A DNA stretch of 64,000 bases from an uncultured Clostridium sp. (GCA_947641575.1 CANRQN010000001.1:46380-110379), one strand, 5' to 3'. Counted from the first letter of the stretch, positions 5,283-52,376 are shown. The notes: generated from the sequence alone by a model not told the origin. A program made the numbers and translations.

Positions 5283-6011
5283 TTAATCTATCCAACCTCC
5301 ATCTACTTTTATAACTTCTCCTGTTATGTATTCATTGCTAATTAGCATATATACACTATTTGCAATATCCTCTGGTATTCCCATTCTTTTTAGTGGTATT
5401 TCTTTTTCTAATTCTTCTATATCTTCTTTACTTAAGTTTTTATTCATTTCTGTATCAATAGCTCCTGGAGCTATTACATTTACTCTTATATTTGATGGTC
5501 CCATTTCTTTGGCAAGAGCTTTTGTCATTCCTATTATGCCTGCTTTTGCAGCTGAATAGTGTACTTCACATGATCCTCCTGTTATCCCCCATACAGATGA
5601 TATATTTATTATGCACCCAGATTTATTGTGAAGCATATTTTTTATAGTCTCTTGTGTCATATAAAAAACTGATTTTAAATTTATATTTAGCATACTATCT
5701 ATGTCTTCGTCTGTTAAATCTGTAAATAGTTTTACCTGTGATATTCCTGCATTATTTATAAGTATATCGATTTTTTCGTATTTTTTTAAAACAAATTCTA
5801 TCATTTGTTTTACTTCTTCTCTTTTACTTACATCTGCTTTGAATATATCAATTTCTATTCCTTCTTTTTGTAATTCTTCCTTTAAGCTTATTGCCTGCTT
5901 TTCTGATTTATTATAGTTTGCAATTACTTTTATATTTTCTCTTGCAAGTTTTTTTGCACATTCTCTTCCGATTCCTCTTGATGCTCCTGTTATTATCGCA
6001 ACTTTTTGCAT
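5283..6011 (-). CDS. SDR-family oxidoreductase (FabG-like 3-oxoacyl-ACP reductase)
   Basis: It has the 'TGASRGIG' Rossmann motif, 'NNAG', and an S...YxxxK catalytic triad (YSAAK). Its paralog lies at 34377..35106. Confidence 0.85.
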   Translation of the reverse strand: MQKVAIITGASRGIGRECAKKLARENIKVIANYNKSEKQAISLKEELQKEGIEIDIFKADVSKREEVKQMIEFVLKKYEKIDILINNAGISQVKLFTDLTDEDIDSMLNINLKSVFYMTQETIKNMLHNKSGCIINISSVWGITGGSCEVHYSAAKAGIIGMTKALAKEMGPSNIRVNVIAPGAIDTEMNKNLSKEDIEELEKEIPLKRMGIPEDIANSVYMLISNEYITGEVIKVDGGWID

Positions 6012-31189: not shown

Positions 31190-32610
31190 AGAATTTTATA
31201 TAACTATTTTATTTTTCTTTCGTTTTTTTATTGATTTTTTTCTTTTGTTTGTATATAATTTAACCATAAAATCTTAACTGTATTTTACCATGTACAGCTA
31301 GATTTATTGAGGTTTGAGTAAGTGTTTGTGTGATGGCTGCACTTACTTCTTTTATGCTCATTTTTAACTCTGATACATATTTTAGCCCTTTTTCTAATAG
31401 CTGTCTTATTGTATGTGCAAATTGTATAAAAAAGTAATGTGCTTTCATCGCATTGTAATTTCTTGAATAAATATGCTCTATATCAAATGTCCCGTTCTTC
31501 TGCATATTAAATCCTTCATTTTCAATTTTCCATCTCTGTCTTCCATAATATATTATATCTTCTTTATTTTTCTCTGTTATCTTAAATGACGTAAGCCACA
31601 TAAATTCTATCTTTTCTTCTTTCTTTGTTTCATAGTATTTTATTACATTTGCTTCTTTATCTCTCTTTACTTCATAATATTTTAACTTATTCCAATATTT
31701 TATTTTGCTTTCTTTTTCTGCTTTCTCTAATCCTTCTATTTCTTCTCCTAATGCTTTTAATCTATCTTTCTTAAATCTTAATATATATTCCCATTTATTA
31801 TTCCTACATACTTCCATTACTGGTTCACATGCATACAATGCATCTCCTGATATTATTATTGGCAATTTTGGATATTCCTTTTTTATTCTTTCTGCCATTC
31901 TGTAAAATGCTCTTATTTCACAATCTTGCTTTTCTACATTTTCTTTTTCATTTTCCACAAACTCTGTATCTATACTAATTACTATATCTCCTACTACTAA
32001 CTTTGCCTCTAATACATAATGGTAATATATGCTATATTCATCGTCTTGCCCTTTATTATATGTTCTCTTTAAACAATTTGGACAATGTCTTTCTTTAAAT
32101 GTTGCTAGTCCTGTCCCATCTATCACTATTTGAAAATATTTTCCTTTATATCTATATTTATCAAACATCTTACTTCTTATCAGTCTATTTACCATATATT
32201 TTTGTATTCTTCGTAATTCTTCTATATCAAGTTCTTCAAATATATCGTTAATCGTATCATAGTGTGGGATTTCTTCTATTTCTATTCCTAGCAATTTTCC
32301 TATATTTTCTATTGCTTCCTCTGTATTAAATTTTTCTGTTGTATTTCTCATACTTGTTATTCCACATAACAATCCCATTAGCCTTGTTACTGTTATTACT
32401 GACATTTGATATTCTACATAACTTTGATGTCTTGTATCTGTTAATCTTTCAAACCTTTTTATTAATTCTGGAAAATATTGTTTTATTATTTTTACTACAT
32501 CTGCAAATATATCTATCTCTTTTTTTAATTTTCTTTTTTCTGCTCTGTTCATTTTTTTACTCCTTTGTGATAAATTTCTTTTTTATTTTATCACAAAGGA
32601 GCTCTTTTGG
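31190..32610 (-). mobile_element. IS4-family insertion sequence. The boundaries are approximate and terminal inverted repeats were not identified.
   Basis: It contains a single 430-aa DDE transposase ORF. A 13-bp perfect hairpin (cctttgtgataaa...tttatcacaaagg, 32562-32599) lies in its 5' leader. Confidence 0.4.
31260..32552 (-). CDS. IS4-family DDE transposase
   Basis: The C-terminal 'YGRQRWKIENEGFNMQK' matches the IS4 Y-x2-R-x3-E-x6-K signature. Confidence 0.7.
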   Translation of the reverse strand: MNRAEKRKLKKEIDIFADVVKIIKQYFPELIKRFERLTDTRHQSYVEYQMSVITVTRLMGLLCGITSMRNTTEKFNTEEAIENIGKLLGIEIEEIPHYDTINDIFEELDIEELRRIQKYMVNRLIRSKMFDKYRYKGKYFQIVIDGTGLATFKERHCPNCLKRTYNKGQDDEYSIYYHYVLEAKLVVGDIVISIDTEFVENEKENVEKQDCEIRAFYRMAERIKKEYPKLPIIISGDALYACEPVMEVCRNNKWEYILRFKKDRLKALGEEIEGLEKAEKESKIKYWNKLKYYEVKRDKEANVIKYYETKKEEKIEFMWLTSFKITEKNKEDIIYYGRQRWKIENEGFNMQKNGTFDIEHIYSRNYNAMKAHYFFIQFAHTIRQLLEKGLKYVSELKMSIKEVSAAITQTLTQTSINLAVHGKIQLRFYG

Positions 32611-33183: not shown

Positions 33184-33639
33184 TTACATAAGTAAACCTC
33201 GTTTACATTGATTATATCTTTTTTTTCTACCACAAGCTGCACATTTCTTTTGTGGCTTTAAAATTAAATTCCCATTAAAGTCTATTGAAATTCCTAATTG
33301 CTCTTTTTCTAATATACTTAGAAAAGTTCTGTATTCCATCGGTATAACAATTCTTCCTAATTCATCTACTTTTCTTAATATTCCTTGTGTACGATTTAAT
33401 GCTAGTTTTTCATTCAAATTCCTTAAATCACTATCTTTATTACAAAATATTTCTTCCAGCACATCTAAAGACAGATTAAGTTCTCTTGTTAGCTTAAGTA
33501 TATTTTGTATATTAAGTTTAGAAAAATCATATTCTTTAGTTACTATGCTATTTCCAAGTATATTACTTATTTTATCATTATCTAAATTGTAAAATGCTTT
33601 TATAGTCTCCATTTTTAAATTTACCGTATTCTTATTCAT
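33184..33639 (-). CDS. AbrB/SpoVT (looped-hinge helix) domain regulator with a C-terminal Cys cluster
   Basis: 'LRKVDELGRIVIPMEYRTFLSI' matches the AbrB/MazE swapped-hairpin motif. Confidence 0.5.
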   Translation of the reverse strand: MNKNTVNLKMETIKAFYNLDNDKISNILGNSIVTKEYDFSKLNIQNILKLTRELNLSLDVLEEIFCNKDSDLRNLNEKLALNRTQGILRKVDELGRIVIPMEYRTFLSILEKEQLGISIDFNGNLILKPQKKCAACGRKKRYNQCKRGLLM

Positions 33640-34376: not shown

Positions 34377-35106
34377 TTATTCGGTCCAGCCACCATCTAT
34401 TTTTATAACTTCTCCAGTTATATATTCATGATTTGTAAGCATATATACACAATTTGCTACATCTTTTGGTGTCCCAATTCTTTTAAGTGGTATCTCATTT
34501 TTTATTTTTTCTTCTTCAGCTTTTGATAATTCATTATTCATTTCTGTGTCAATATATCCAGGTGCAATCGCATTTACTCTAATATTTGAAGGTCCAACTT
34601 CTTTCGCTAATGCTTTTGTAAAGCCTATTATTCCGTGCTTTTGTACTAGAATATAATACTTCGCAAGAAGCTCCTATTATTCCCCATACAGAAGATATAT
34701 TTATTATTACACCTGATTTATTGTGTATCATATTAAGCAAAACCTCTTGTGTTACATAGAAAATTGATTTTAAATTAACATCAAGCATATTATCTATATC
34801 TTTATCTGTAATATCTGTAAACATTTTTATCTGCGATATTCCAGCATTATTTACAAGTATATCTATTTTTTTATATTTTCCTAATACATAATCTACCATT
34901 TGTTTTATTTCATTTTTCTTTGTAACATCTGCCTTAAATATATCAATTTCTATTCCCTCTGCTTGAAGTTCTTGTCTTAATTCTTTTGCTTTTCCCTCTG
35001 ATTTATTATAATTTGCAACTACAATTATTCCTTCTCTTGCGAACTTTTTTGCTATTTCTTTACCAATACCTCGTGATGCTCCTGTAATTATTGCTACTTT
35101 TAACAT
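34377..35106 (-). CDS. SDR-family oxidoreductase, a paralog of 5283..6011 at about 70% amino-acid identity. It is broken by one single-C insertion near 34655.
   Basis: It is collinear with the first SDR through 'SCEVLYSSTKA'. The frame is lost at minus-strand 'gcaCggaat'. Removing the C restores '...GIIGFTKALAKEVGPSNIRVNAIAPGYIDTEM...GGWTE*'. Confidence 0.7.
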
Positions 35107-36101: not shown

Positions 36102-36971
36102 CTAAAATAATATCTCAATATATAATTCGTCTTTTATATATTTAGCTGTAATCATTCCTTCATTCATTTCTACTAGCTGCTTTGCTATTGAAAGTCCGAG
36201 TCCAGAATACTTTTTTATATTTTCTACAGTATAATATCTCTCAAAAATCCTTTTTACTGTTATTACATCTAATTTGCTCGCTTTATTTGAAAAAGATATT
36301 TTTCCATCTTCTTTTAGGGTAATATTGCAATTACTATCACTATATTTAATAGCATTTGATATTATATTTTCAAAAACTCTAATTATCATATCTTTATCAA
36401 TATTTCTGTATATCTTTTTCTCACATATACTAATATTAGGCTCTACTTTTTTGTCTTTAAATGAATTATATAGGCTCGCTATTGTTTCTTCTAAAATGTC
36501 ATTTACACAACATTTTTCTTTCTTTATTTTTCTTTCTAGGTCTAATCCTATACTTAAATCTCTTAGTTGTTCTGCAAGAACTGTTAATTCCTTTGTTTTA
36601 TTTTTTATTATTTTTACATACTCTTTTTTATTTAAGTCTTCTTCTTCCAATAATTCAATATATCCACTAATAGCTGTAAGTGGTGTCCTTAAATCATGTG
36701 AAATATCAGTTACAAGTCTTTTTAACTCCTGATTTCCATTTTCATATTGTAATTTTTGTTTTCTAAGTTTCTTTAATTCTATATTTAAGCTATTTGCTAA
36801 AGCCTTTATTTCTCTATCATTACTAGATACTGTTATTAAATTATTTGTATCTATTTGTATAATTCTATGTAGTGATTTTTGTATTTCATTTATTGTTTTT
36901 CTAAGTAGTATTAACTTTAATGATAATGCTACTATTATTAAAGTTAGTATTCCATATATATAAATACTCAT
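36102..36971 (-). CDS. Sensor histidine kinase (HisKA plus HATPase_c)
   Basis: H-box 'ISHDLRTPLTAISGYIELL', an N-terminal TM segment, and G-boxes 'GLGLSIAKQLVE'. Confidence 0.8.
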   Translation of the reverse strand: MSIYIYGILTLIIVALSLKLILLRKTINEIQKSLHRIIQIDTNNLITVSSNDREIKALANSLNIELKKLRKQKLQYENGNQELKRLVTDISHDLRTPLTAISGYIELLEEEDLNKKEYVKIIKNKTKELTVLAEQLRDLSIGLDLERKIKKEKCCVNDILEETIASLYNSFKDKKVEPNISICEKKIYRNIDKDMIIRVFENIISNAIKYSDSNCNITLKEDGKISFSNKASKLDVITVKRIFERYYTVENIKKYSGLGLSIAKQLVEMNEGMITAKYIKDELYIEILF

Positions 36972-37003: not shown

Positions 37004-37864
37004 TTAAATAACACTATTCCTGATAAAGTAAATATTGTTATAACACCGTATAGAACATAAAAGTAGTATAGTATTATTGTAATCTCTTCTATTTTCTACA
37101 TCTTGGTCTGGTGCTAATTTATTTAAAAGCATTGTAGCTTGTCCTGCTGGCATAATATAAAGGATATTTTTATACTCTTTTGCTTTCTTTTCTCCTGGAA
37201 ATCTAATATTTACACTCATTATTTCTTTTTCTATAATTTCATCACCCCTACTAGTTGTTGCATAATAATATTGTGGTTCATTTACTTTTTCTATTAAGTA
37301 AAAACTTGTTGCTATCATTATAACAACTAAAATTAACCCAATTGCTGTTGATAAATTTATATCAGAACATATTAATGGTATAAATGTAAAAATAGCAGCA
37401 TATTCAATTGTAACCATTATTATATCAAATATAATAATCATAAATTCACTCATACTAATTTTAGTTTCAAACCCTCCGTATAATAGGTATTCCAACTATT
37501 GTGGCAAATATTAAATATACTACTTCTATAATGATACTAACCGTAATATTAATCATCAAATTTGATAAATATATTTTTGTTCTAGATTTGCCGAACTACT
37601 ATCTTATTTCTAATAGCACCGCCCAGAATATTCTGCTCCTGTAAATAGTGTTGCAAATATTACTATTAAAAATGCTATAATATTTATATTTCCTACTAAC
37701 ACTGTTTCTAAATTTTCTATTAAAGTATTATTTCCTTTTTTTGCAACACCAATCATAAGTATTGCGATTAAAAGTGTTACTACTATTATTATAAAAAACA
37801 TTTTAGATTTACTCAATTTAAACATTCCTAGACTTAGTAAATTATACATTGTTTCCACCTCCAA
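37004..37864 (-). CDS. ABC-2-type permease, split into three frames by single-C insertions
   Basis: It has six TM helices. The pieces join after removing the C's in minus-strand 'gggCggtgc', 'gttCggcaa', 'ataCggagg' and 'ataCggtgt'. Confidence 0.55.
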
Positions 37865-38757
37865 TTAAATTTATATAATAATTTTCTAGTGTTTCTTCTT
37901 TTTCATGAAATTCATTGATGGTACAATTTTGTTTTGAAAGTGCAACTACAAACTCTGAAATGTTTATATTACTATATATATTGATTGTATTATCATCGAC
38001 AATTTTATAATCAATTTTAATCTGTTCTAAATGTTTTACGCATTCTTTTAAGTTATTTACTTTTATTTCAATTCTTTTTTTACAATTTTTTTCTAGTTCT
38101 TCAGCACTAATTTCTTTTATTATCCTCCCATTGTCTATGAATCCATAATGTGTCGTAATTTTAGATAACTCATCTAAATAATGACTTGATATTAAAATAG
38201 TTATTCCTTTTTCTTTATTAAGCTTTAATATTAATTCCCTTATTTCTATTATTCCCTCTGGATCTAATCCATTTATTGGCTCATCTAAAATAAGTAAATC
38301 TGGATTTCCTACTAAAGCTATCCCAATTCCTAATCTTTGTTTCATTCCGAAATGAGAAATTTTTTGTCTTTTTTTTATCTGTGTTTTTTAGTCCAACTAA
38401 TTCTAAAATTTCTTCTACTATTTCATAACTTGGATTCCCAATAATTTTTGCTTGTGCTTTTAGATTATCTTTTGCTGTCATATCTAAATAAATTGATGGA
38501 GTTTCAATTATTGCACCTATTCTATTTCTTGCATCACAAATATTCCTATCTAAGTTCTGTACTCCATAAATAGTATAATTGCCACCACTTGGTTTTTGCA
38601 ATCCACAAATTACTCTAATTAAAGTGGTTTTTCCTGCTCCATTTTTTCCTATAAGTCCGTATATTGAACCTTTTTCAATGTGCATATTCACCTTGCTTAT
38701 TGCCTTAAATTTTCCATATCTTTTTTCAAGATTATTAGTTTCTAATACATATTTCAT
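37842..38757 (-). CDS. ABC transporter ATP-binding protein, broken by one single-C insertion near 38347
   Basis: Walker A 'GKNGAGKTT', a signature '...FSFGMKQRLGIGIAL' that appears after the C in 'tttCggaatg' is removed, and Walker B 'LLILDEP'. Confidence 0.75.
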
Positions 38758-38843: not shown

Positions 38844-39503
38844 TTATTCTTTTATTTTGAATCCTATTCCCCATACTGCTTCAATGTATTCTTCAAGTTT
38901 AATTTTTCTTATTTTCTTTCTTATATTGCTTATATGTACTTTCAAAGAACTTTCATCACAATTCTCTGCATCTATACTAATTAAATCTAGCAACCTTGTT
39001 TTAGTAATTACTTTATTTGGAGTTAATAGGAGTTCTCTCATTATTGTATATTCTGTTCTAGTTAATGAAATTTTATGGCTTTGAATTTTCATAGTCTTAT
39101 TATCTTCTAATAATTCTATATCTTTATATTTTAAATTTTTATCTTGGTGATGGCTTATTCTTAATTGTACTTGTATTCTAGCAAGAAGTTCAATTTTCTC
39201 AAAAGGTTTTGTAATATAGTCATTTGCACCCTCTAATAACACTTTTGCTTTCTCTTTTGAAGATGTTTTTGCACTAATAACTATTATAGGTATAGTTTTA
39301 TTTACTTTTTTCACTATATCTTCTCCATTTATCCCTGGAAGCATTAAATCTAAAAGTATTAAATCTATATTATCATTTTCTATTATTGTTAGTGCTTCTG
39401 TTCCAGAATAAGCACTTTGAACAATATAATGTTCTTTTTCAAGAAATTCTTTTATAAATTTGTGTATCGTATTATCGTCTTCTACCACTAATATTTTTTT
39501 CAT
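38844..39503 (-). CDS. OmpR-family response regulator (REC plus winged helix)
   Basis: The REC domain is 'KILVVEDD...DLILLDLMLPGINGEDI' and there is a C-terminal trans_reg_C. It forms an RR-ABC-permease-HK operon. Confidence 0.8.
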   Translation of the reverse strand: MKKILVVEDDNTIHKFIKEFLEKEHYIVQSAYSGTEALTIIENDNIDLILLDLMLPGINGEDIVKKVNKTIPIIVISAKTSSKEKAKVLLEGANDYITKPFEKIELLARIQVQLRISHHQDKNLKYKDIELLEDNKTMKIQSHKISLTRTEYTIMRELLLTPNKVITKTRLLDLISIDAENCDESSLKVHISNIRKKIRKIKLEEYIEAVWGIGFKIKE

Positions 39504-39691: not shown

Positions 39692-40762
39692 TTAAGCTAC
39701 TTTATTTAATGTATAATGTACATTAAAATCTCTATCAAAGAAATCTCTAAAATTGTCAATGTATTTTATCTCAAAATTATATTTAAGCGGTTCCAAATCT
39801 TCAATTATTTGACTGATTATATGTTCTGTATCATCTTTATCTTCTTCTCTAATTACAAATGTAATATTATTAATATGAGCCCTTTCAATTTGTTTCAAAA
39901 TCATATATGAATTTGTAATATTTTGAAACGCAATAATTGCATTATCTGAATTTTCCCTTATAAAATTTCCTAAAAGTAAGTTATTAGTTATTATAATATT
40001 ATCCGTATTTTTTTGGAAGTTTCCTTTTAGTATCCAATTTCGTGCAGCTGTACCATTTATTTTGTCATTACTTGAAAACCATATTTCTTTTGAACTATTA
40101 AACTCTTTATCTAATTTTATCGACAGACCTTGTATCAGTCCATTCTCATCAAACACAGGTATTAAAATTCCACTTATTCCTGTAAAACACCAATTAAAAT
40201 CTTCTTCTTGATATACTCCAGGAATACCACATAAATTATACTTTTTAGATAAGTTATAAGCTACCAGACGTCTTTTTATGTAATTTTTAGGCAAACTTCT
40301 ATAAAGTCCATTTTTTATAGAACTTTTTAACAAACCTAGTTTTTCAAGATATCCTCTATGTGAGCTTTCTAATTTTAACATATTTAGAAATTCTCTATAA
40401 ACTGCATCTCTAACTTCAATATCTGCAATCATATTAATTGGACTAATTTCTATTCGTGATTTATTCTCGCCAAAACATTCCTTTTCTAATAGTTCTCTAT
40501 ATGCTTGTTTTTGATTAATTCCTCTAACATTTGCGTATAATCCTATTGAATACCCTTTTTTCTTACATCTCATGCAATGGTATCTATTTGTATTAGGATT
40601 AAGAATTAAAGTAGGTGTTTTGCTATTTTTATTATACCCACAGAACGGACATATAGCTTTAACTTCAACTCCTCTATCCTCGTATAATTCTAAGCATAAA
40701 TGATATGCTACATTTAGTATATTTATATGTTCTTTTACCTCTTGGTAATCTGCTTTGTTCAT
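39692..40762 (-). CDS. DNA primase (CHC2 zinc finger plus TOPRIM), plasmid/phage type
   Basis: The zinc finger is 'CPFCGYNKNSKTPTLILNPNTNRYHCMRCKKKG'. It is followed by a TOPRIM-like region. Confidence 0.6.
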   Translation of the reverse strand: MNKADYQEVKEHINILNVAYHLCLELYEDRGVEVKAICPFCGYNKNSKTPTLILNPNTNRYHCMRCKKKGYSIGLYANVRGINQKQAYRELLEKECFGENKSRIEISPINMIADIEVRDAVYREFLNMLKLESSHRGYLEKLGLLKSSIKNGLYRSLPKNYIKRRLVAYNLSKKYNLCGIPGVYQEEDFNWCFTGISGILIPVFDENGLIQGLSIKLDKEFNSSKEIWFSSNDKINGTAARNWILKGNFQKNTDNIIITNNLLLGNFIRENSDNAIIAFQNITNSYMILKQIERAHINNITFVIREEDKDDTEHIISQIIEDLEPLKYNFEIKYIDNFRDFFDRDFNVHYTLNKVA

Positions 40763-42183: not shown

Positions 42184-43060
42184 TTAAATGCACAATATCC
42201 ATTTGTCCTCTTTTTTCTGAAAATTAGGATTATTATTCAATGTTTGTCTAATTTTTTCTCTTACATAATTATTGCCTTTTGCCTTTTTTGACTTAATCAA
42301 AATATTATAAATTTCATCAATAGTGGCCTTATTCTTAAGGTATTCTAGTGTTGCCTGAATCAAATCTCTCCAGGTTATATTAGTCGCATTTATGATATTT
42401 GCTTTAATATCTGTTGTAGTCTTTATATTATAAACCCATATTTTATTTTTTCTAAAAACAAGTAAATGCTCGTGTTTTATTGGAATGAAGTTATTATTGC
42501 TATACACTTTATTATCTGAAATACAATTATATTGTATCTTTATGATGTGACTTTCTAAATCACCGATACCAATTCATATCTTTTATGATACTGTAATATT
42601 TACCTTTTTTTCTGACATCTCCAACTAAAGTCGCATGCCTTCCACCATTAACTAAAGAATGATATATTTTTTCGTTTACTAAATTAAGCTTTTTTATAAA
42701 TTCCTCATAAGGCATTTCATTTGATAAATCGTTTACCGAATAGTTTTTCCTTTGTTTAGCATAGGAAATAATGTCCCAATAAGGCGGATGTGAAAAAATA
42801 AAATCTGCCCCACAAGGTATTTCACTTGTTAGGGCATCCCATCCATTATTTAGATCCAAATGTATGCTATTAGTTATATTAAGTTCTTTTGCAACATCTT
42901 TTCCAGTATTTCCACCACTAAAAATCTCTACGAATTTTTTTGGCTTCGAATTAGGATAAAATTGAGTTAGCAAATCTTTTATAATATATCCTGAACAATT
43001 TCCCCTATACTGATTATCTCCATAATTTCCACGCTCTTTATAACTAACTACACTTTTCAT
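42184..43060 (-). CDS. Small SAM-dependent amino-methyltransferase (S/D-PPY motif, orphan), joined across one single-C insertion near 42583
   Basis: Motif I-like 'EIFSGGNTG' and motif IV 'SHPPYWD' are present. ORF 42560..43060 fuses to 42184..42507 (...NWYGDLESHIIKI...HEHLLVFRK...) after the C in 'tatCggtga' is removed. No adjacent endonuclease gene is evident. Confidence 0.5.
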
Positions 43061-43852: not shown

Positions 43853-44042
43853 TCCTCTCTTTTGTTTTATATATTTTCTGTCTATCTTTATTGCGTTTTT
43901 TATATTTTATTTGTCCTGTAATATGTATATAGATTCTAAGTATTACTAAAGTCAATATACAAATAATTACCAGTATTGCAGAAATCATTTCTCCAATAAT
44001 TTTAATTTTTATAAATAATCCCACTGTTATTTTTCCTTTCAA
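43845..44042 (-). CDS. Small membrane protein (65 aa)
   Basis: A single TM helix and a basic C-terminal tail. Confidence 0.3.
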   Translation of the reverse strand: MKGKITVGLFIKIKIIGEMISAILVIICILTLVILRIYIHITGQIKYKKRNKDRQKIYKTKERND

Positions 44043-44842
44043 TAAACATAATTATAGTTTTGTTTTTCTTTAATTGGTTCTATTTTTTCAAAGATTAACA
44101 ATATTGCATTCACATTCGTTCCCGCCTCCTTAAAGCTATTTTGTGGTAATTTATACCAAGCTCCATTTTTTTCCTGAAACCATTTCTTAAATTCTTGTCC
44201 TTTTTTATTAGATAGCTGTAAAACAGAACTAGTTGCTACAGTGACTAAATATCCATTATTTTTTAGAAATTTATATGCATGCATTATATGTTCCTTTTGT
44301 TCTTTAAATGGTGGATTCATTATTATAACATCATATTTTTCTTCTGGCTCTACTGTTAGAAAATCTGTACATATTGGATTATATCCTTTTTGTTTCATAA
44401 ATTCGCAATGATACGGATTTATTTCAATGCAAGTAACTTTAGAGTTTGGAAATAAAGTAGTTATTTCATCTGCAATATGCCCTTTTCCACAAGATGGTTC
44501 TAAAAATTCAAGTTGTTCATTATAGTACAAAGGTATTGTTCCAAACATAATATTTATTACATTTTTAGGTGTGTAAAAGTATTCTGTTTGTTTCTTCCAA
44601 TTAGTTACTCGCTTTTCTTTGTAAACATTTTGTAGCATATTAGAAATATCATATTCAAAAATATGACCTTTCTTTTTCCTATTCCATTTTGCTCCTAATG
44701 CAAGCAAAACTTTATTTACTTTTTCATACACATTTCGCTCTAATTGTATCTTTGGTAAATAATATACATTATCCTCTATAATTCCTTTTTTTAATATGCC
44801 GATTGTTTCTTCATCAACATCCATTTGATTTTTATTTGCCAT
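44039..44842 (-). CDS. Gamma-class N6-adenine DNA methyltransferase (orphan)
   Basis: An 'FYTPKNVINIMF' (FxTP) motif, motif I 'EPSCGKGHI' and motif IV 'IIMNPPF'. There is no cognate restriction gene nearby. Confidence 0.6.
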   Translation of the reverse strand: MANKNQMDVDEETIGILKKGIIEDNVYYLPKIQLERNVYEKVNKVLLALGAKWNRKKKGHIFEYDISNMLQNVYKEKRVTNWKKQTEYFYTPKNVINIMFGTIPLYYNEQLEFLEPSCGKGHIADEITTLFPNSKVTCIEINPYHCEFMKQKGYNPICTDFLTVEPEEKYDVIIMNPPFKEQKEHIMHAYKFLKNNGYLVTVATSSVLQLSNKKGQEFKKWFQEKNGAWYKLPQNSFKEAGTNVNAILLIFEKIEPIKEKQNYNYVY

Positions 44843-44909
44843 TCTCTCACCTCTTTATTATTTTTTCAAACTAATAAGAGATGAAATTTAATTCATCTCT
44901 TATCAAAAT

Positions 44910-47348
44910 TTAATTATCTTGTTCAGGTTTCCATAAAAAAAAGTCACTTGTTTTATAGTTTCCTTCATCTTGAATTGTTGCTGGTCCTTGCAAACTGTCT
45001 AAATATTGCTCACCTGCTTTTGATTTTGATATATACATATAAAAATTTTTGTATATATAGCTTTCATTTGTTTCTCCTCTATAGAAATAGCTTAATGTCA
45101 ATAATGTCTTCATTTTTTGTGCCTTACTTTCCAAAAGTTTTATAAACATTTTCTTTATGTTATGAGCTACATCATCTGAAATTCCAGAAATATATGCCCT
45201 TTCTAAAAATATAGTTAATTTTTCCTTATTATATTCTTTATCAATGCTATCATTATCTTCATTTTCTACATCAACAAAAGATAAATTACTTGTTTGCTTT
45301 AAATCTTGATTTTTCACTTTTGTAAGTCGAACCATTGCTCTTGCAACTATTTTGCCATTTCTTCTTGCATATAATATTTTTTTATTACTATCAAAACAAG
45401 CAAGTAGACATCTATTGTACATTCCTCCTATATATGAAAGGCATGTTTCCATAGGTTCTTGTCCTAGCAGCATCGTAGAATAAAAATCATCAAATTCACC
45501 AACTTCAATATCATTATTAGATAATGAAATATTATTAGTCCATTCATCTATTTGATCTTTCGTTAATTCAAAGCTTAACTCTTTGTTTAAATCATCTGTA
45601 TGATATTTTAGTTTTTTAAATTGTCCTGTAAGTTCTGCTTTTAATATCAGTTTAAATTTTTCTCTATTTATAGTACAACTGTTATAATAACAATATGCAA
45701 GTTCTGCTCCATTTTTCAATAAAAATTCTCTTATATTAGCTTGATATTTCTCTATAAATTCTGGTGTCAATTCCATAAACTCTGCAATATTTCTCCAATA
45801 TTTATCTGTTTCCATCATTTTATCTTTTGCTTCTTGTAAATTTGAAAATTGTGCCAAGTTATCCTTATTTCTTAATATGTATAACAATTCATTCTTATCC
45901 TTAATTTCTCCAATAAATCTGCTAATATCTTCATAAGATATTAAGGCTTTAACAACATCACTAGCAGTTATATCCTTAATGTTTTTAAACTCCTGTTCCA
46001 ACCAGCTATATAATGCTTTTGTGCTTAATTTTTTTGATAACTTTTTTAGTTCTTCTTGTGATGTATAATTAGCTAATAAATTTTTATTTATTATTTGTTT
46101 TATTCTTTTAATCCTTTCATCTACCTTTAAATTCAATAAATAGTTATACATTTCATAATATTTTCCATTATGCGTATCATATAACATTTTAATTTCATTA
46201 AAAGTATATATATCTTCCTTTAATAAGTGTAAGTTTTGTACTCCTGTCATAGATTGTAAATCTTTTAAATTTTTTGAATTCATAGCATTTATATTTACAT
46301 ATTTAGAGTAAAATTCTTCATCAAATAATATTGAATCATTCGGTATCTCTGAAAATTCATCTGGATTCTGTTCAATTAACTTTAAAAATCCATTTTTATT
46401 ATTCACTATTGCATATATTATTAGTTTTTCTTTTTTTTCTGTTAAATAGTTTAAATTCAAGCTTTTTAGTTTACTTCCATAAATAAAATTGATATATCCA
46501 CTTCTGCAGCCAAACATTCCATATAATTTTAAAATATCTATGTCTTTATTTTCTATTTTATTTATTATCGACCTTAAATCATATAAATTACACTTGTTTT
46601 CTATCCATCTATATAAAACTCTATATAATATATCATTATTATTTAGCACTTTGGATAACTGATGCACATACTCAAAAATTAGTTTTGCATTTCTATCTAT
46701 TTGTTCATAATTTTCTCTTTCTAATCTAACTGTTAATCCTTTTCGGTATAAAAAAAGTATGAATTTTTTTAGTTCCTTATTTCGAACTAAAAACTCATAC
46801 ACAATTTTCAAATTCGTATTTGGTATTAAGTTATAAGCTGAAAGTGCTGGTAAAGTAAATAACTTCAATTCTTCTGCCGTCAGTTCTTGTATTTTTATTT
46901 TTTCCTGGTTAAAGAAGTAATCAAGGTTTTCGATAATTGTCATTTTTTTAAAGTCATTTTCAACTGTGTCGATAAAATATTTTAAATATGCATAACTTGT
47001 ATCACTACTTTCATTATGATCTAGTAACACATTTATTATTTTATTTACATCATAATTTGTCAGCTTGTCTCCTGCCTTCTGCATAGTTTCTATAAGCTTA
47101 CCTATTTCGTCTTTCGTTATACCAGCAACATATGCACGAATTAAATATTTAATAATATTTGTATTCTTTACTAATTCCTTTTGTATTACTTCAGACGACA
47201 AGTACATTTGATGTGCCAAATGACTTTCTTCTATTTTTTCGCAACAATTCTCTAATTCTTTTATTTGAAATTCTTTTAACAACTTTAGGTCTAATTCTTT
47301 GCAATAAAGATTAGTAGCAATTTTAGCATGCTCTTTTAAAGATTCCAT
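44910..47348 (-). CDS. Large hypothetical protein (812 aa, all-alpha, Lys/Asn/Tyr-rich). It is a paralog of the upstream 708-aa protein.
   Basis: No Walker, nuclease or HExxH motifs were found. It shares an 'FSEIPN' motif and a repetitive helical character with 47323..49449. Confidence 0.4.
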   Translation of the reverse strand: MESLKEHAKIATNLYCKELDLKLLKEFQIKELENCCEKIEESHLAHQMYLSSEVIQKELVKNTNIIKYLIRAYVAGITKDEIGKLIETMQKAGDKLTNYDVNKIINVLLDHNESSDTSYAYLKYFIDTVENDFKKMTIIENLDYFFNQEKIKIQELTAEELKLFTLPALSAYNLIPNTNLKIVYEFLVRNKELKKFILFLYRKGLTVRLERENYEQIDRNAKLIFEYVHQLSKVLNNNDILYRVLYRWIENKCNLYDLRSIINKIENKDIDILKLYGMFGCRSGYINFIYGSKLKSLNLNYLTEKKEKLIIYAIVNNKNGFLKLIEQNPDEFSEIPNDSILFDEEFYSKYVNINAMNSKNLKDLQSMTGVQNLHLLKEDIYTFNEIKMLYDTHNGKYYEMYNYLLNLKVDERIKRIKQIINKNLLANYTSQEELKKLSKKLSTKALYSWLEQEFKNIKDITASDVVKALISYEDISRFIGEIKDKNELLYILRNKDNLAQFSNLQEAKDKMMETDKYWRNIAEFMELTPEFIEKYQANIREFLLKNGAELAYCYYNSCTINREKFKLILKAELTGQFKKLKYHTDDLNKELSFELTKDQIDEWTNNISLSNNDIEVGEFDDFYSTMLLGQEPMETCLSYIGGMYNRCLLACFDSNKKILYARRNGKIVARAMVRLTKVKNQDLKQTSNLSFVDVENEDNDSIDKEYNKEKLTIFLERAYISGISDDVAHNIKKMFIKLLESKAQKMKTLLTLSYFYRGETNESYIYKNFYMYISKSKAGEQYLDSLQGPATIQDEGNYKTSDFFLWKPEQDN

Positions 47349-49449
47349 AATTGTATTCCTCCATATCCATATATCTGTTTATATATCCTTTAACTTCATC
47401 CAAAGTAAGTTCTTTTTGTCTTATAAATAGTTCTAATATTCTAAAAAATCCTATTATATTCCCTTCAGAAATTTCAAAATTTTCGATATTTTTATCCAAA
47501 TATCCTTTTACTATTTTTTTACAAATATTCCAAGTTTCATCGTCATATTGTTTGCCATCGCAAAATCCATATATATCCTTTAAACTTGCTTTTGGTACTT
47601 TGAAGAAATCTGCTATTAATTCATTTTTCTTTTCTTGAAGTTTTATCATTTTTTGTCTTTCTTTTTCTTTATTTTCTCTGTCTATAATGTCTTGCAATTC
47701 TTTTTTTGTTAAATATTTCTCCCTTAATTGTTGATTTTTTTCATATTCTTTATCAATTTTAATCAGCATAAGATATACCGCTCTTAATTCTTCTTTAGGC
47801 ACTACTTCACTAACAAAATCACTTCTTAGAGCATCCTTTATAAAGTGTATATAATCTTCTGGCTCTACTGTGAATATATAATTATCTAACCAAAGAAATA
47901 GTTTTTTGCTTTCTTCTTTTGATAAAAAGCTTCTTTTTATGTCTATCTTACTTACATAATAATAGCTACGATAATTCTCATATAATGTACTTATATTAAA
48001 TCCCATCTTATCCGTTTCTTCAATGCTATATCCTCTTTCTTCCAATATATATTTTAAAAAATTATAAGCATTTCTGCTTTGTATTTTGTTTACATATGAT
48101 TTTAGATGATTTATACTTACATTATTTCCTAGACTTCTTTGTTTTTCATATTCTTCATAGTATTCTCTTAACGAAATTAAATCTTTATCTACTAACTGAT
48201 TAAATATACTAGTCCTTCCATTATTAGGTATATGAAAACTTTCTAAATATGATGTATTGGCAAGTTTATTATATCTTTCAATACACTTTTCTAATATAGT
48301 CCTATCGAAATTATTTTGTTCTATGAAATCATTGAATAGTGTTTTATACTCATCCTTTTCCATTTTTTGAGCCAAAACATCCCATTTTTCCTCTAAAATA
48401 TTAAATGAGAATAACCTATTTGGAAAGATTCTACGAAAATTAAAAAATGTTATTGGATCTATTATATTTATCTTATCTCTAATATTTTCTAATAACCCTT
48501 CATCTCCCTCGAGCCTAATATCAAATTTTCTATATTTTTTTATAATCCATTTAACCATATCATACAGTATTTGAGGTTGCTGACTGTTTTTATGTAATAT
48601 TGTTATACAAAAATTTACTGCTATTCTTTCTTCTGTTATAGAAGAATTGTAAAGTTCAACAGTATTTGGTATTTCAGAAAAATATAGAAGTCCATAATTC
48701 AAATAAGCAATTTCTTCTTTCGTATATCCATTTTCGTATAAAACTTTATATACATCACTATCTTGCTTTATCTGTTTTGTAGGTATAATTATCATCTTTT
48801 TTAATAGCATAGCATCCTTTTTCTTATAGCCTTTTAAGACACTATATAAACTATTTATTATCCAAGCATATAATTTTATATTATTAATTGCAGATATTGT
48901 TCTATCTTTACCTAATAATATAATTATCTGATTTTTCAGATTATCAAATGCCTTTTCTACATTATCAAATAATGATAATACAAAAAAAAGTTCCTCAGTA
49001 TTCGCATATTTTTTATCCAAAAACTCTTTCCCATATTGTGCATATTTATCAGCATCATACAAATATAATGAACCTTTTAAATATAAATCATCTTCAGCCA
49101 TACTTTTTATTTTAGTAATAAAATCTACTAATTGAGTTCCTACAATCATATTATTAGTAACCAATTCTTTAGCATAGCCCAATGCCAAACTAATAGCTCT
49201 AATATCATTTATATTATTCCCTATTTTTTGCTCATATCTTTCTAATAATTCTCCAAAATATTCAACATTACAAGTACTTTGGATATCATCTAAACATTTT
49301 CTCGTAAACCATATGCACTTTTTTCTTATGTTATCTATTTTTTCATTCGAAAAATTATCAGATGTATTAGCAATAAAATTTATTAAACTATTGCATAATC
49401 CAATATTGACATTTTTTTCAAATGCTTCATTTTGTATAAATTCTTCCAT
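47323..49449 (-). CDS. Large hypothetical protein (708 aa), translationally coupled to the 812-aa gene with a 26-nt overlap
   Basis: A clean ORF with no recognisable catalytic motifs. Confidence 0.4.
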   Translation of the reverse strand: MEEFIQNEAFEKNVNIGLCNSLINFIANTSDNFSNEKIDNIRKKCIWFTRKCLDDIQSTCNVEYFGELLERYEQKIGNNINDIRAISLALGYAKELVTNNMIVGTQLVDFITKIKSMAEDDLYLKGSLYLYDADKYAQYGKEFLDKKYANTEELFFVLSLFDNVEKAFDNLKNQIIILLGKDRTISAINNIKLYAWIINSLYSVLKGYKKKDAMLLKKMIIIPTKQIKQDSDVYKVLYENGYTKEEIAYLNYGLLYFSEIPNTVELYNSSITEERIAVNFCITILHKNSQQPQILYDMVKWIIKKYRKFDIRLEGDEGLLENIRDKINIIDPITFFNFRRIFPNRLFSFNILEEKWDVLAQKMEKDEYKTLFNDFIEQNNFDRTILEKCIERYNKLANTSYLESFHIPNNGRTSIFNQLVDKDLISLREYYEEYEKQRSLGNNVSINHLKSYVNKIQSRNAYNFLKYILEERGYSIEETDKMGFNISTLYENYRSYYYVSKIDIKRSFLSKEESKKLFLWLDNYIFTVEPEDYIHFIKDALRSDFVSEVVPKEELRAVYLMLIKIDKEYEKNQQLREKYLTKKELQDIIDRENKEKERQKMIKLQEKKNELIADFFKVPKASLKDIYGFCDGKQYDDETWNICKKIVKGYLDKNIENFEISEGNIIGFFRILELFIRQKELTLDEVKGYINRYMDMEEYNYGIFKRAC

Positions 49450-49486
49450 TTTGATTTCCCTTTCTTTACAAATTTAAGAAGTGGTT

Positions 49487-50335
49487 TTATGCAGCTTTCT
49501 CTAAATTTTCATTTTGCACTTCAAATTCTTCTATTTCCTTTATTAAATTATTTGCACACTTTTGTATTTTGTTTCCAAGTTCTAAAACAACCTTTGGTTC
49601 TCCTTTGGCCCATTTTGTGATGTAATTGAAACTACAGCAAGAAGTATCAAGTCCAAAATGGTCTGCAACAATAAAACTAATTGATTCCACAAATACTTCA
49701 GACAAATTTCTATCAGTCTTATAATCAAAGTCATCATATAGTCCATGTGAAAGTTCGTGTAATAATACTGCTGCTTTATCATCAACTGACAATGATTTTT
49801 CCAATACTATCTCTTTTTTTATCGTATTGTAATACCCTTTTGCACTTCCTTCTATATTTCGCTCATATATTGGAAATTTACTAAATTCTTTTAATTTTTC
49901 ATAAAACTCCGTCATATTATTATTATCAATATTAGTACTCTCTAAAGGAATTTTTTCTCCTGTTGTTTCAGAAATATCATATACATAAACATATCTATAT
50001 GCGTTGTATCTAACCTTTTCAACAACTTCAACTTCTTCACCATCTACAGTCTTTTTAACTTTTTTAGTATATGCTCTTGGTATTGGTGCAACAATAAATA
50101 TCTTCTGTGCATCTTTTTTTACTTCTCTTTTTAATTGAGTCCATTTAGCTTTTCCTGCTACCTTTGTAGCATCTGGAAATTGCGAAAAAATTAAAATAAG
50201 GTTATTAAAACTATACCCCCTAAAACTTTTGCTAAATTTTAAAAACCTCTCGTATTCACCATTTTGAACGATATTTTGAATATAATTTACAACTTTTTCA
50301 AAGACTTGCTTTGTGTTATTCTTCTTATTATCCAT
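49487..50335 (-). CDS. ardC: ArdC-like antirestriction protein (an N-terminal ssDNA-binding domain plus a C-terminal zincin HExxH domain)
   Basis: 'LLHELSHGL' is a HExxH motif. The N-terminal 'FSKSFRGYSFNNLILIF' is ArdC-N-like. The protein ends in ...EKAA. Confidence 0.5.
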   Translation of the reverse strand: MDNKKNNTKQVFEKVVNYIQNIVQNGEYERFLKFSKSFRGYSFNNLILIFSQFPDATKVAGKAKWTQLKREVKKDAQKIFIVAPIPRAYTKKVKKTVDGEEVEVVEKVRYNAYRYVYVYDISETTGEKIPLESTNIDNNNMTEFYEKLKEFSKFPIYERNIEGSAKGYYNTIKKEIVLEKSLSVDDKAAVLLHELSHGLYDDFDYKTDRNLSEVFVESISFIVADHFGLDTSCCSFNYITKWAKGEPKVVLELGNKIQKCANNLIKEIEEFEVQNENLEKAA

Positions 50336-50415: not shown

Positions 50416-51966
50416 TTATGCAGCTTTTTTATTAAGTTCATATTGTTTAATTTCAATTTTTGATTTCTTCTCATATTTTGACTTTTTATCCATAAAGTTC
50501 CTATATCCTAGCCACTTGTCAATAAAATCATTTTGTTCCTTAGTAAGATTTTTGTTATTATTTGCAAGTACTTTTTGTTTGACACAACCGTTTTTAAATT
50601 CAAGTGTTATAAATGATTTATCCATTTTATCTAATTGCCTAACAAAATATATTTCTGTTTCTCCTTCTATATATGGTTTAAGATACAGATGTCCTACACA
50701 ATTTTTCTGTTCTCGCCCTTCGTTTTTTAAGTCCTCCACACTTGGTGCTGGAAAAATGATATATTTATCATCTTCATATGTGTATTTAGACAATTCCAAA
50801 TATCTAATATATGCTGCAAATTGTGTATTAATATCTTTAGAAATCTCCAATTTAGTGCTTAATTTATCATGCCAAGCCTTTAATTGATATGGAAATAGCC
50901 TTTTTTTACTTTTTATACTAAAGCCTAACTGGTCTGCTGCTTTTAAATAATCTGCATACAACTGTAGATTATTTAATCCCTTTTGATAGTTTAGTAATTT
51001 CTTTAAAGGAACATATTTACAAATTTCTCTAATAGTATCACGTCTATAATAAAAGTTATTTACTACGTCTTCATCATGAATAAGCCCTTGCTTTTTCATA
51101 AATGACAAATAATTATAATCATAATACCTATATCGTTTTATCATCTCCATATCAGGTCGTTGTATTAGCTTTAATGTTCTATAATCCCAATAATCTATAT
51201 CGTTTTCCAACATAAATTTAAAGAAACTTTTAGGAACTCCAAATCTTTTTTCAAAAGATCCTTTTTTCTTAAATTTATTTGAAGCTAAAGCTAAACTATG
51301 CAATCCCATCTTCCACAATATTTCGAAACTTGGATGAGATGCTATTTGCAATATCTTAAAGTCATTATAATGACTATACTCCTTTTTAAATTCTTGTATT
51401 GGAGCATATTCTAAAGGTGTTCCTTTAAAAAGGTGCTTTTCATTATATGGATATATAGGCATTTCATCAATTAACTTGTTTCCAGTATATAAATGCCATC
51501 TTTTAATTTTTACATTATGCCATATTGCTTGATGCCACATACCAAAACTTACAGAGTTATTTATAATAATACCTATACCTGGAATAAATCTTGCAAATTC
51601 TTGCAAATGTTCTTTAAATGTCCTCGTTTTATAATCATACTTAGACCTTATTTCAAAGATTCTTAGAGCTATTTTATCTTCTACTTTTGTGTAAAAAGCA
51701 ATATCTTTAAGAAACTCCATATTTCGTAGATTACAATTATAGGCATAGTATTTATGACCACATAATTTACATTCTTTTTTTTCATAATCCTTTAATACTA
51801 CATTTCCTTCAAAATATTTTTGACATCTCGTACAAAAAAGTCTGTTTCCACATTTTAAAATTACATTATGGTCTGTTGTATTATGATTAATAAATTTTCT
51901 CCAATGTTTTGGTTTTTTCCCAGAATCTATTTTTTTCATTAACTTATCTATTTCTTTTTTATTCAT
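50416..51966 (-). CDS. PcfJ-like protein
   Basis: A protein of about 516 aa with Cys-rich N-terminal motifs and 'QKNCVGHLY'. Its size and context match the PcfJ-like family of Gram-positive conjugative elements. It ends in ...KKAA. Confidence 0.4.
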   Translation of the reverse strand: MNKKEIDKLMKKIDSGKKPKHWRKFINHNTTDHNVILKCGNRLFCTRCQKYFEGNVVLKDYEKKECKLCGHKYYAYNCNLRNMEFLKDIAFYTKVEDKIALRIFEIRSKYDYKTRTFKEHLQEFARFIPGIGIIINNSVSFGMWHQAIWHNVKIKRWHLYTGNKLIDEMPIYPYNEKHLFKGTPLEYAPIQEFKKEYSHYNDFKILQIASHPSFEILWKMGLHSLALASNKFKKKGSFEKRFGVPKSFFKFMLENDIDYWDYRTLKLIQRPDMEMIKRYRYYDYNYLSFMKKQGLIHDEDVVNNFYYRRDTIREICKYVPLKKLLNYQKGLNNLQLYADYLKAADQLGFSIKSKKRLFPYQLKAWHDKLSTKLEISKDINTQFAAYIRYLELSKYTYEDDKYIIFPAPSVEDLKNEGREQKNCVGHLYLKPYIEGETEIYFVRQLDKMDKSFITLEFKNGCVKQKVLANNNKNLTKEQNDFIDKWLGYRNFMDKKSKYEKKSKIEIKQYELNKKAA

Positions 51967-52376
51967 GAAACCATACCTCCAAATAATGAAATTTGTTCTA
52001 GCTTTTTATTCTCTTCTGCTTTCTTCTTTGCTTCTTCCATAGATATTATATTGTTTTTATTAGATTCTTTTGGAGTCTTTTTATTTGCATTATTTTTTTG
52101 CTTTGTATCATTTTTTATTTTTAAAAAGCTATTAGGAAATGCAAAATACATAATTGCCCATGCAAAAACCACTTCATTTGTAATATAATTCCAACCAACC
52201 TGTACTACATTTTTGCCCTTTTCTTGAACAAATTTAGCCATTCCATCAATATCTTTCTCTTCGTTTAAATACTTTTGTTCCATATCTTTTCTTGATAACA
52301 AATAATCAACTACTTGTATCAAAGCTTTATCTTTTTGCCCTACCATTTGTTCTCTTAACCTATCAAACCCTGTCAT
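51963..52376 (-). CDS. Hypothetical protein (137 aa)
   Basis: A clean ORF with a 4-nt overlap with the PcfJ-like gene. Confidence 0.3.
   Translation of the reverse strand: MTGFDRLREQMVGQKDKALIQVVDYLLSRKDMEQKYLNEEKDIDGMAKFVQEKGKNVVQVGWNYITNEVVFAWAIMYFAFPNSFLKIKNDTKQKNNANKKTPKESNKNNIISMEEAKKKAEENKKLEQISLFGGMVS

Follow-up and report, generated by a model that had tools for sequence, protein, structure and literature searches.

Enzymes of the GNAT superfamily bind the pyrophosphate of acetyl-CoA through motif A, the sequence Q/R-x-x-G-x-G/A in the loop between strand β4 and helix α3. One member of the superfamily, AcrVA5, is an anti-CRISPR acetyltransferase, and in NatA the catalytic GNAT subunit, Naa10, is joined by a helical-repeat auxiliary subunit, Naa15. 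The names PcfJ and PcfK, which recur below, originate from the Enterococcus plasmid pCF10. Conjugative elements and phages encode 'polyvalent proteins' that act early, and GNAT domains are a known part of these proteins (Iyer et al. 2017, PMC5512222); establishment regions concentrate anti-defence genes (Samuel et al. 2024, PMC11541004). Here we have analysed two adjacent genes, A and B, of a mobile element found in a 64,000-nucleotide stretch of DNA from an uncultured Clostridium sp. (GCA_947641575.1 CANRQN010000001.1:46380-110379; hereafter the window). An earlier note on this DNA had proposed that both genes form a new anti-defence or defence module with a DNA methyltransferase (MTase) and an ArdC-like gene next to them. 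The literature on PcfJ and PcfK and on GNAT anti-defence of conjugative elements yielded nothing specific.

Our results show that A and B are one translationally coupled, self-contained two-gene module of the backbones of Bacillota mobile elements, and that their pairing is essentially obligate. Both open reading frames (ORFs) and their 26-nt overlap are as the earlier note had described them (Table 1), and a Shine-Dalgarno sequence, GGAGG (47362-47358), lies inside the 3' end of A, 9 nt ahead of the ATG of B. A B start preceded by a Shine-Dalgarno sequence, from -47 to +14 nt relative to the A stop, was found in 53 of the 54 junction entries compared, the sole exception being locus L021 with an A-B gap of ~170 nt. 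With tblastn, 68/85 loci have an A-family gene as the immediate upstream neighbour of B, and with clustering 73/88; most loci that seem to lack it stop at a contig border or hold only a truncated B. In seven loci (L001, L002, L089, L090, L068, L072 and L075) the gene upstream of B is a very divergent A of 640-820 aa, recognised by hhalign against the A profile with a probability of 97.7-98.3%; four of these, with a full-length B, are plasmids of Alkaliphilus, Paenibacillus, Rossellomorea and Virgibacillus (L001, L002, L089 and L090). Thus, wherever enough sequence precedes a full-length B, essentially all loci have A immediately ahead of it, and the two genes nearly always overlap or adjoin. 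In the 287-kb Sporofaciens musculi record called 'plasmid unnamed' (NZ_WUQX01000003.1) there are two separate A-B pairs (L059 and L070).

Table 1. Positions of the gene pair and of its neighbours in the window
Feature	Coordinates	Strand	Description
Gene A	47323..49449	-	ORF, 708 aa; upstream partner
Gene B	44910..47348	-	ORF, 812 aa; downstream partner
A/B junction	47323..47362	-	B ATG at 47348-47346; A stop ends at 47323; overlap of 26 nt
B C-terminal domain, residues 606-806	44931..45533	-	Divergent GNAT-like α/β fold, weak match
Invariant polar residues within the B C-terminal domain			E618, T635, C636, C647, D653, N655, K656, K657, R670, R674, T676, K677, D693, E716, Y719, K742, Y756, S774, K777, Q781, Y782, D784, S785, Y798
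N6-adenine MTase	44039..44842	-	Gamma-type motif order; neighbour, outside the conserved unit
ArdC-like gene	49487..50335	-	ArdcN and HExxH metallopeptidase; neighbour, outside the conserved unit
PcfJ-like gene	50416..51966	-	Pfam PcfJ, 1.3e-24
Weak PcfK-like gene	51963..52376	-	Pfam PcfK, 1.4e-3
Second MTase	42184..43060	-	Motif 'SHPPYWD'; frameshift giving ORFs of 166 and 107 aa
VirB4/TraG-like type IV secretion system ATPase gene	10378..12769	+	Broken into at least 6 overlapping or adjacent ORFs

The B family is large and widely distributed. An exhaustive profile search retrieved 739 representatives (50% identity clusters) at E <= 1e-3, with 357 at <= 1e-30, and almost all the listed representatives, fragments aside, are ~800 aa long; for A, 67 homologues were found. 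A genome scan gave 72 loci in Clostridia (Lachnospiraceae, Oscillospiraceae, many of them gut metagenome-assembled genomes and isolates) and 6 more on IMG/VR contigs, and tblastn detected the family on megaplasmids of Subdoligranulum, Alkaliphilus, Paenibacillus, Rossellomorea and Virgibacillus. The carriers of the module are conjugative elements and islands resembling integrative and conjugative elements (ICEs) in gut Clostridia, together with megaplasmids in Bacilli; the earlier note had left room for a confinement of the proteins to unrelated chromosomal contexts, and the contexts that we find are mobile elements. Within the syntenic clade, identity to the window in the same loci is 45-57% for B, 38-55% for A and 44-54% for the single-stranded DNA-binding protein (SSB), and only 30-36% for PcfJ, 32-36% for the primase and 29-31% for the SMC-like ATPase. 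A and B, which equal SSB in conservation and surpass PcfJ, the primase and the SMC-like ATPase, thus behave like backbone genes under purifying selection. The pair may still have the defence or anti-defence function that the earlier note had proposed, but its conservation fits a core function of the element better than an accessory role in an arms race, and no PADLOC model matches A or B.

What kind of proteins do these genes encode? Neither A nor B matched Pfam, PHROGs, PADLOC, NCBIfam or the PDB sequences (as single sequences, and for the PDB also as profiles), nor any component model of PADLOC-DB 2.0, those of BREX and MADS included, and 60 diverse B members scanned singly against Pfam at E <= 5 produced no recurrent family. 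Walker, nuclease, HExxH and methyltransferase motifs had been listed as missing from both, and our motif scan agrees for Walker A, HExxH and [NDS]PP[YFW]. Remote homology and fold searches assigned neither protein to a well-characterised structural family. The core of the note's idea, that of large uncharacterised proteins on a mobile element, holds: no curated library recognises A or B, and they lie amid establishment-type genes (SSB, ArdC, PcfJ/PcfK, DUF3846, MTases and primase). The note's view of A and B as paralogs does not hold: the best BLASTP E-value between them is 6.4 and hhalign of the two family profiles gives 0.3-0.4% probability, with adequate sensitivity, because A homologues at 16-19% identity were recovered at 98%. 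The 'FSEIPN' hexamer that they share (A residue 257, B residue 332) is in neither family consensus, and a 6-mer shared between A and B arises in 6% of composition-preserving shuffles. A and B are soluble proteins without a transmembrane segment. A membrane or secreted protein was discarded, as no hydrophobic segment occurs in A or B, and a DNA-mimic anti-restriction protein of the Ocr or ArdA type is unlikely with isoelectric points of 5.8 for A and 6.3 for B and a charge that is only modestly negative in both.

The description of both proteins as all-alpha is right for A, one hairpin aside, and wrong for B. The AlphaFold model of A (pLDDT 89) consists of helices save for the hairpin at 490-502, and its most conserved stretch spans residues ~60-130 (Y64, G66, E67, L69, E70, R71 and R84). 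Foldseek found for A generic helical-repeat matches only (CBP80, importins and TPR scaffolds, TM < 0.2) and no specific relative. In the model of B (pLDDT 86), a helical N-terminus that varies (~1-280) is followed by a helical core that is conserved (~280-605) and then by the C-terminal α/β domain, and across the wide B family conservation starts only at about residue 280.

We propose that this C-terminal domain probably has a GNAT-type fold. Its modelled secondary-structure order, β1-α1-α2-β2-β3-β4-α3-β5-(short turn)-β6-β7, largely agrees in strands and helices with the GNAT core (β1-α1-α2-β2-β3-β4-α3-β5-α4-β6-β7). When the domain was compared with the PDB by Foldseek, 41 of the 50 top matches were GNAT enzymes, with per-match probabilities of 0.6-1.0, among them PaiA, AAC(3)-Ia, AAC(6'), RimI-type enzymes, Naa60 and GNAT toxins; in BFVD, viral GNAT, FemAB and NMT-type acyltransferases appeared among weak matches. 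Almost all the invariant polar residues in the conservation table of the B family fall within this domain (Table 1), and the conserved residues form four groups: E716 and Y719 on β4 with Y756 after β5; the α1-α2 loop GxxPxxTCxSYxDG; the β6-β7 insertion ISxSKxGxQYLDSLxG; and a Lys/Arg set on β2-β3. On the model, E716 and Y756 appear to sit at the usual positions of the GNAT general base and acid, and the two loops, which are the most conserved of the domain, seem to occupy the region that serves GNATs for binding the acceptor. Searched with a profile of its own, the domain turned up nothing but the same family, fragments included, and is therefore not found in other architectures.

Our current explanation is that the C-terminal domain of B would be a divergent GNAT-fold module, either an acyl-CoA N-acyltransferase-like enzyme or a ligand-binding module, mounted on a helical body, and that A, made in stoichiometric amounts, would be the helical scaffold or specificity subunit for B. 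The complex would acylate, or otherwise bind and modify, one strongly conserved cellular or element-borne target, and the outcome would serve the establishment or maintenance of the element through DNA processing, replication or host takeover, with anti-defence as one possibility. As a whole (a two-subunit module, a GNAT-like enzyme with a helical partner, and modification of a target) this explanation is offered tentatively, and in its full form it is rather doubtful. Predicting that the domain is catalytically active is already somewhat doubtful. A bolder version, in which A and B represent a new class of two-subunit acyltransferase of Bacillota mobile elements, and in which a conserved host factor is its covalently modified target, either on entry or while the element is resident, we hold to be unlikely; the factor may in that case be a defence protein, a replication or repair factor, or nucleic acid.

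Several results weigh against this explanation. The fold matches of the B domain have E-values of 0.05-0.8 in the PDB and BFVD, none of them <= 1e-3 and none significant alone, and the TM-scores to GNAT chains, normalised on the target, reach only 0.35-0.57. No acetyltransferase (GNAT) Pfam family was reported for the 60 diverse B members at E <= 5, and the NCBIfam and PDB profile searches with B were negative for a GNAT profile too. A regular-expression search of B did not find motif A (Q/RxxGxG/A), the β4-α3 loop (residues 721-725) varies across the 60 family members, and in the model helix α4 is cut down to ~3 residues. Because the fold match is weak, motif A is missing, α4 is vestigial and no GNAT profile recognises it, the domain could be a non-catalytic binding module. 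The physical assembly of A and B into a complex is suggested by the gene arrangement, and no fused A-B protein was detected among the best 150 B representatives. As for a role in transfer, all six PLSDB plasmids that carry the pair (6/6) are typed as non-mobilizable, and the window combines a broken VirB4-like gene with an intact A-B pair, which argues against a role restricted to conjugative entry.

How does the pair compare with the systems described so far? With the GNAT superfamily, from which its best, though weak, structural matches come, the B domain largely shares the strand and helix order, and its conserved Glu on β4 and Tyr after β5 are at the usual catalytic positions. It differs in lacking a sequence-profile match and motif A, in the near loss of α4, and in being fused to a ~600-residue helical region found nowhere else and paired with the large helical A. 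Like the GNAT domains of polyvalent proteins it is carried by mobile elements among early or establishment-type genes, but those domains are RimI-like and the B domain is not recognisably so. NatA offers an analogy of architecture only, that of a large helical-repeat subunit with a GNAT-fold subunit: Naa15 (5nnr_A) is among the weak Foldseek matches of A (rank 23, E 0.085), with a TM of ~0.14 and no evidence of homology, B has a helical region of its own, and the A-B complex is deduced from the genes. The genomic setting matches that of the leading regions that contain ArdC (PMC11541004), in that ssb, ardC-like, MTase and primase genes run in the direction of the pair, on a conjugative element; A and B differ in having no homology to known anti-defence families, in being conserved like backbone genes and in residing also on non-mobilizable megaplasmids. 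No relaxase or oriT was identified in the window, and a leading-region position is therefore not demonstrated. Like the pair, the PcfJ-like and PcfK-like proteins (Pfam PF14284 and PF14058) are uncharacterised, and they are its commonest named neighbours, but hhalign gave < 1% probability for PcfJ against the B N-terminus, the B C-terminus and A, and for PcfK against the B C-terminus and A, and BLASTP with PcfJ found nothing. A 'C..Y' pattern had suggested a PcfJ-like domain at the B C-terminus, which BLASTP and hhalign ruled out, and with the PcfK, DUF4120-like and DUF7666 neighbours hhalign detected no relationship to A or B. A and B are thus outside every curated family and defence system tested; the pair would act most like a GNAT-based effector of mobile elements, but fails the sequence-level criteria of GNATs.

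The earlier proposal of a four-gene anti-defence or defence system, made up of A, B, the orphan N6-MTase and ArdC, finds some support in this element, where the four genes are contiguous and co-oriented, with gaps of 37, -26 and 67 nt and no terminator-like site on the minus strand until 39685-39650. The same arrangement is found in other copies of the element, and unrelated DNA MTases occur within a few kb of the pair in Virgibacillus, in Paenibacillus and in loci L028, L029 and L031. The MTase family itself, by contrast, was present in 0/85 related loci, only in copies of the same element, and ArdC accompanies the pair in 3/85, while A-B is constant; the closest relatives have the pair between primase and PcfK, with neither MTase nor ArdC, and no MTase family is among the 25 commonest Pfam families in a census of 119 ORFs that neighbour the pair at 19 diverse loci. 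There is no PADLOC model for A or B, and the mad2 match of the MTase is at the domain level only. These co-occurrence counts largely refute the four-gene module, to which we give hardly any credence. The coupling that had been suggested is mere adjacency in this element; grouping the pair with the adjacent MTase and ArdC was plausible but wrong, and being neighbours in a single element is not enough to infer that genes form a system. A MADS- or BREX-like system was also rejected: the mad2 match belongs to the MTase (17 bits with NCBIfam MAD2, against a cutoff of 720), and the mad3 and LmuB matches to an SMC-like ATPase 8 kb away, all of them reflecting generic domains of other genes and far short of the NCBIfam cutoffs. 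Another rival, in which mobile elements carry the pair as cargo and it works as a two-component system of defence or exclusion, would agree with a tightly coupled two-gene cassette on mobile elements, with DUF262 and GIY-YIG neighbours in Rossellomorea and with a restriction endonuclease in Paenibacillus. We consider it quite improbable: besides the lack of a PADLOC match, no nuclease, NTPase, TIR, protease or membrane effector domain was found, in the Clostridia clade the pair has a fixed place in a syntenic backbone rather than in a variable island, it exceeds its neighbours in conservation, and the listed representatives have a uniform length.

A maintenance or replication role is a serious rival, because of the non-mobilizable carriers, the broken VirB4-like gene and the failure to find an oriT or relaxase. 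Here A and B would be non-enzymatic, architectural proteins of the replication, partition or processing machinery of the element, for example an organiser of the replisome or of segregation, and the GNAT-like domain would be a degenerate module binding a ligand or a protein. Conservation equal to that of SSB speaks for it, as do the absence of the canonical acetyl-CoA motif from B, the presence of the pair on non-mobilizable megaplasmids and its integrity where the VirB4-like gene is broken, and neighbours that include primase, SSB, NAD-dependent ligase, a ParM/Alp-like actin, UvrD/RecD-like helicases and integrases; the invariant K581, K656, K657, R670, R674, K677, K742 and K777 could bind phosphate or nucleic acid. 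Yet the motif and family searches brought up nothing of the DNA-binding, NTPase or initiator kind, A and B are both mildly acidic overall, no single replication or partition gene is a constant partner of the pair, and the invariant Glu, Tyr, Ser, Cys and Asp residues cluster at GNAT active-site and acceptor-loop positions, which is more enzyme-like. We regard this architectural role as unlikely.

The genes that adjoin the pair belong to known types. The gamma class that the earlier note had given to the N6-adenine MTase is borne out by motif I (EPSCGKGH, ~115-122) lying ahead of motif IV (NPPF, ~176-179) in one domain and by the Pfam MTS match (1.6e-9); PADLOC models of type II and orphan MTases match it, and it resembles the MTase domains of large polyvalent proteins. 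The ArdC-like flank also stands, as a weak but consistent match that combines an ArdC-N domain (ArdcN, 24.4 bits against a cutoff of 22.6, E 3.7e-5) with a C-terminal HExxH zincin motif, HELSH; matches to DUF6782 and to M78 metallopeptidases are weak. Across loci, the PcfJ family occurs in 43/88 and PcfK-type families in 20 and 17. The closest relatives have the gene order SSB - primase - small ORF - A - B - PcfK - PcfJ; in a distant Lachnospiraceae/Oscillospiraceae clade it is YodL - PcfK - DUF7666 - PcfJ - NAD-ligase - A - B - DUF4120-like - ParM-like - SLOG, and on the megaplasmids of Bacilli the neighbours are unrelated. The Pfam census returned mobile-element genes with no dominant partner besides A, including integrases, PAPS-reductase-like and PD-(D/E)XK proteins, UvrD/RecD-like helicases, PcfJ, ParM-like proteins and primases. 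The adjacent MTase and ArdC are interchangeable neighbours. What had been read as a second small orphan MTase does carry an MTase motif, but the gene is not intact. Its two halves match adjacent positions in loci L028, L029 and L031, and the same split is called in three other assemblies of the element (L091-L093), so that a genuine pseudogene is more probable than an error of sequencing. In related elements (loci L003-L026, e.g. L026:4834-5481) a conserved ORF of ~215 aa lies between SSB and primase; it contains a stretch, 'MNCGSGAMILAYA', that looks like an MTase motif I, and has no Pfam match.

The window is AT-rich, with a G+C content of ~24-33% over 2-kb windows. From ~59.0 kb to 39.7 kb every substantial ORF is on the minus strand with short gaps, and the only terminator-like sites on that strand of the block are the one at 39685-39650, just beyond the primase gene, and an intragenic one at 55256-55243. 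Along transcription the genes are Gp3-like, SMC/RecF-like ATPase, DUF3846, a small S6-like ORF, SSB, four small ORFs, the weak PcfK-like gene, PcfJ, ArdC-like, A, B, N6-MTase, small ORFs, the frameshifted second MTase and a primase-like gene with a CHC2 zinc ribbon within 39692..40762, the primase that had been reported nearby. On the plus strand, the 6.7-27 kb region bears a gene similar to type IV secretion pilins and TrbL, the VirB4/TraG-like ATPase and SpaA/thioester adhesins, and the setting is therefore a Gram-positive conjugative element. An identical B protein with the same surrounding gene order is present on 22 contigs of JGI, NCBI and ENA assemblies, so the element is real and in circulation; near-identical DNA was found in neither PLSDB plasmids nor INPHARED phages, and the window has no internal DNA repeats. 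In the broken VirB4-like gene, a Walker A ('GTSGGGKS') is in 11792..11953 and an AAA_10/TraG P-loop fragment in 12175..12648. The transfer machinery of this copy looks decayed, and the minus-strand block at 39.7-59 kb is almost intact.

Other features of the element were observed along the way. A large surface adhesin gene (14589..19092, +) with a thioester domain and several SpaA prealbumin-like domains appears to be split into ~6 consecutive ORFs, consistent with frameshifts or pseudogenisation. An ABC-transporter ATPase (37842..38757, -) is read as two overlapping ORFs of 158 and 167 aa and adjoins a response regulator (38844..39503) and a histidine kinase (36102..36971), and the group looks like a cargo two-component/ABC module with a frameshift. 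A DDE transposase of an insertion sequence (31260..32552, -) and a MazE/AbrB-like gene (33184..33639, -) separate the cargo region from the remainder, and a short-chain dehydrogenase exists as a truncated copy (34579..35106) and an intact one (5283..6011), with no DNA repeat connecting both. The minus-strand block has two SSB genes (54241..54969 and 59518..59958). Ahead of the first lies an ORF of 94 aa (54685..54969), the counterparts of which in related elements match Pfam Ribosomal_S6, and this S6-like/SSB pair, which recalls the chromosomal rpsF-ssb arrangement, is kept across related elements. The SMC/RecF/Rad50-like ATPase (544 aa, 55547..57181, -), with LmuB as its best PADLOC match (8e-16) and mad3 as another, adjoins a Gp3-like 'recombination directionality factor-like' protein (57379..58575, -); both genes are kept in the closest related elements alongside an ERF recombinase, and the window is without ERF.

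ICEs and megaplasmids drive gene flow in gut Clostridia, and most of their backbone genes have no known function. What is new here is a family and an architecture built around a probable GNAT fold, with an obligate partner and a putative active site of marked conservation, and the invariant E716, Y756 and K777 are direct mutational handles on it. If the GNAT-like domain is catalytic, it would be a new enzyme family among the tools with which mobile elements establish and maintain themselves; and if the pair does covalently modify a host factor, it would represent a new way, widespread among gut Clostridia, of taking over the host or countering its defences.

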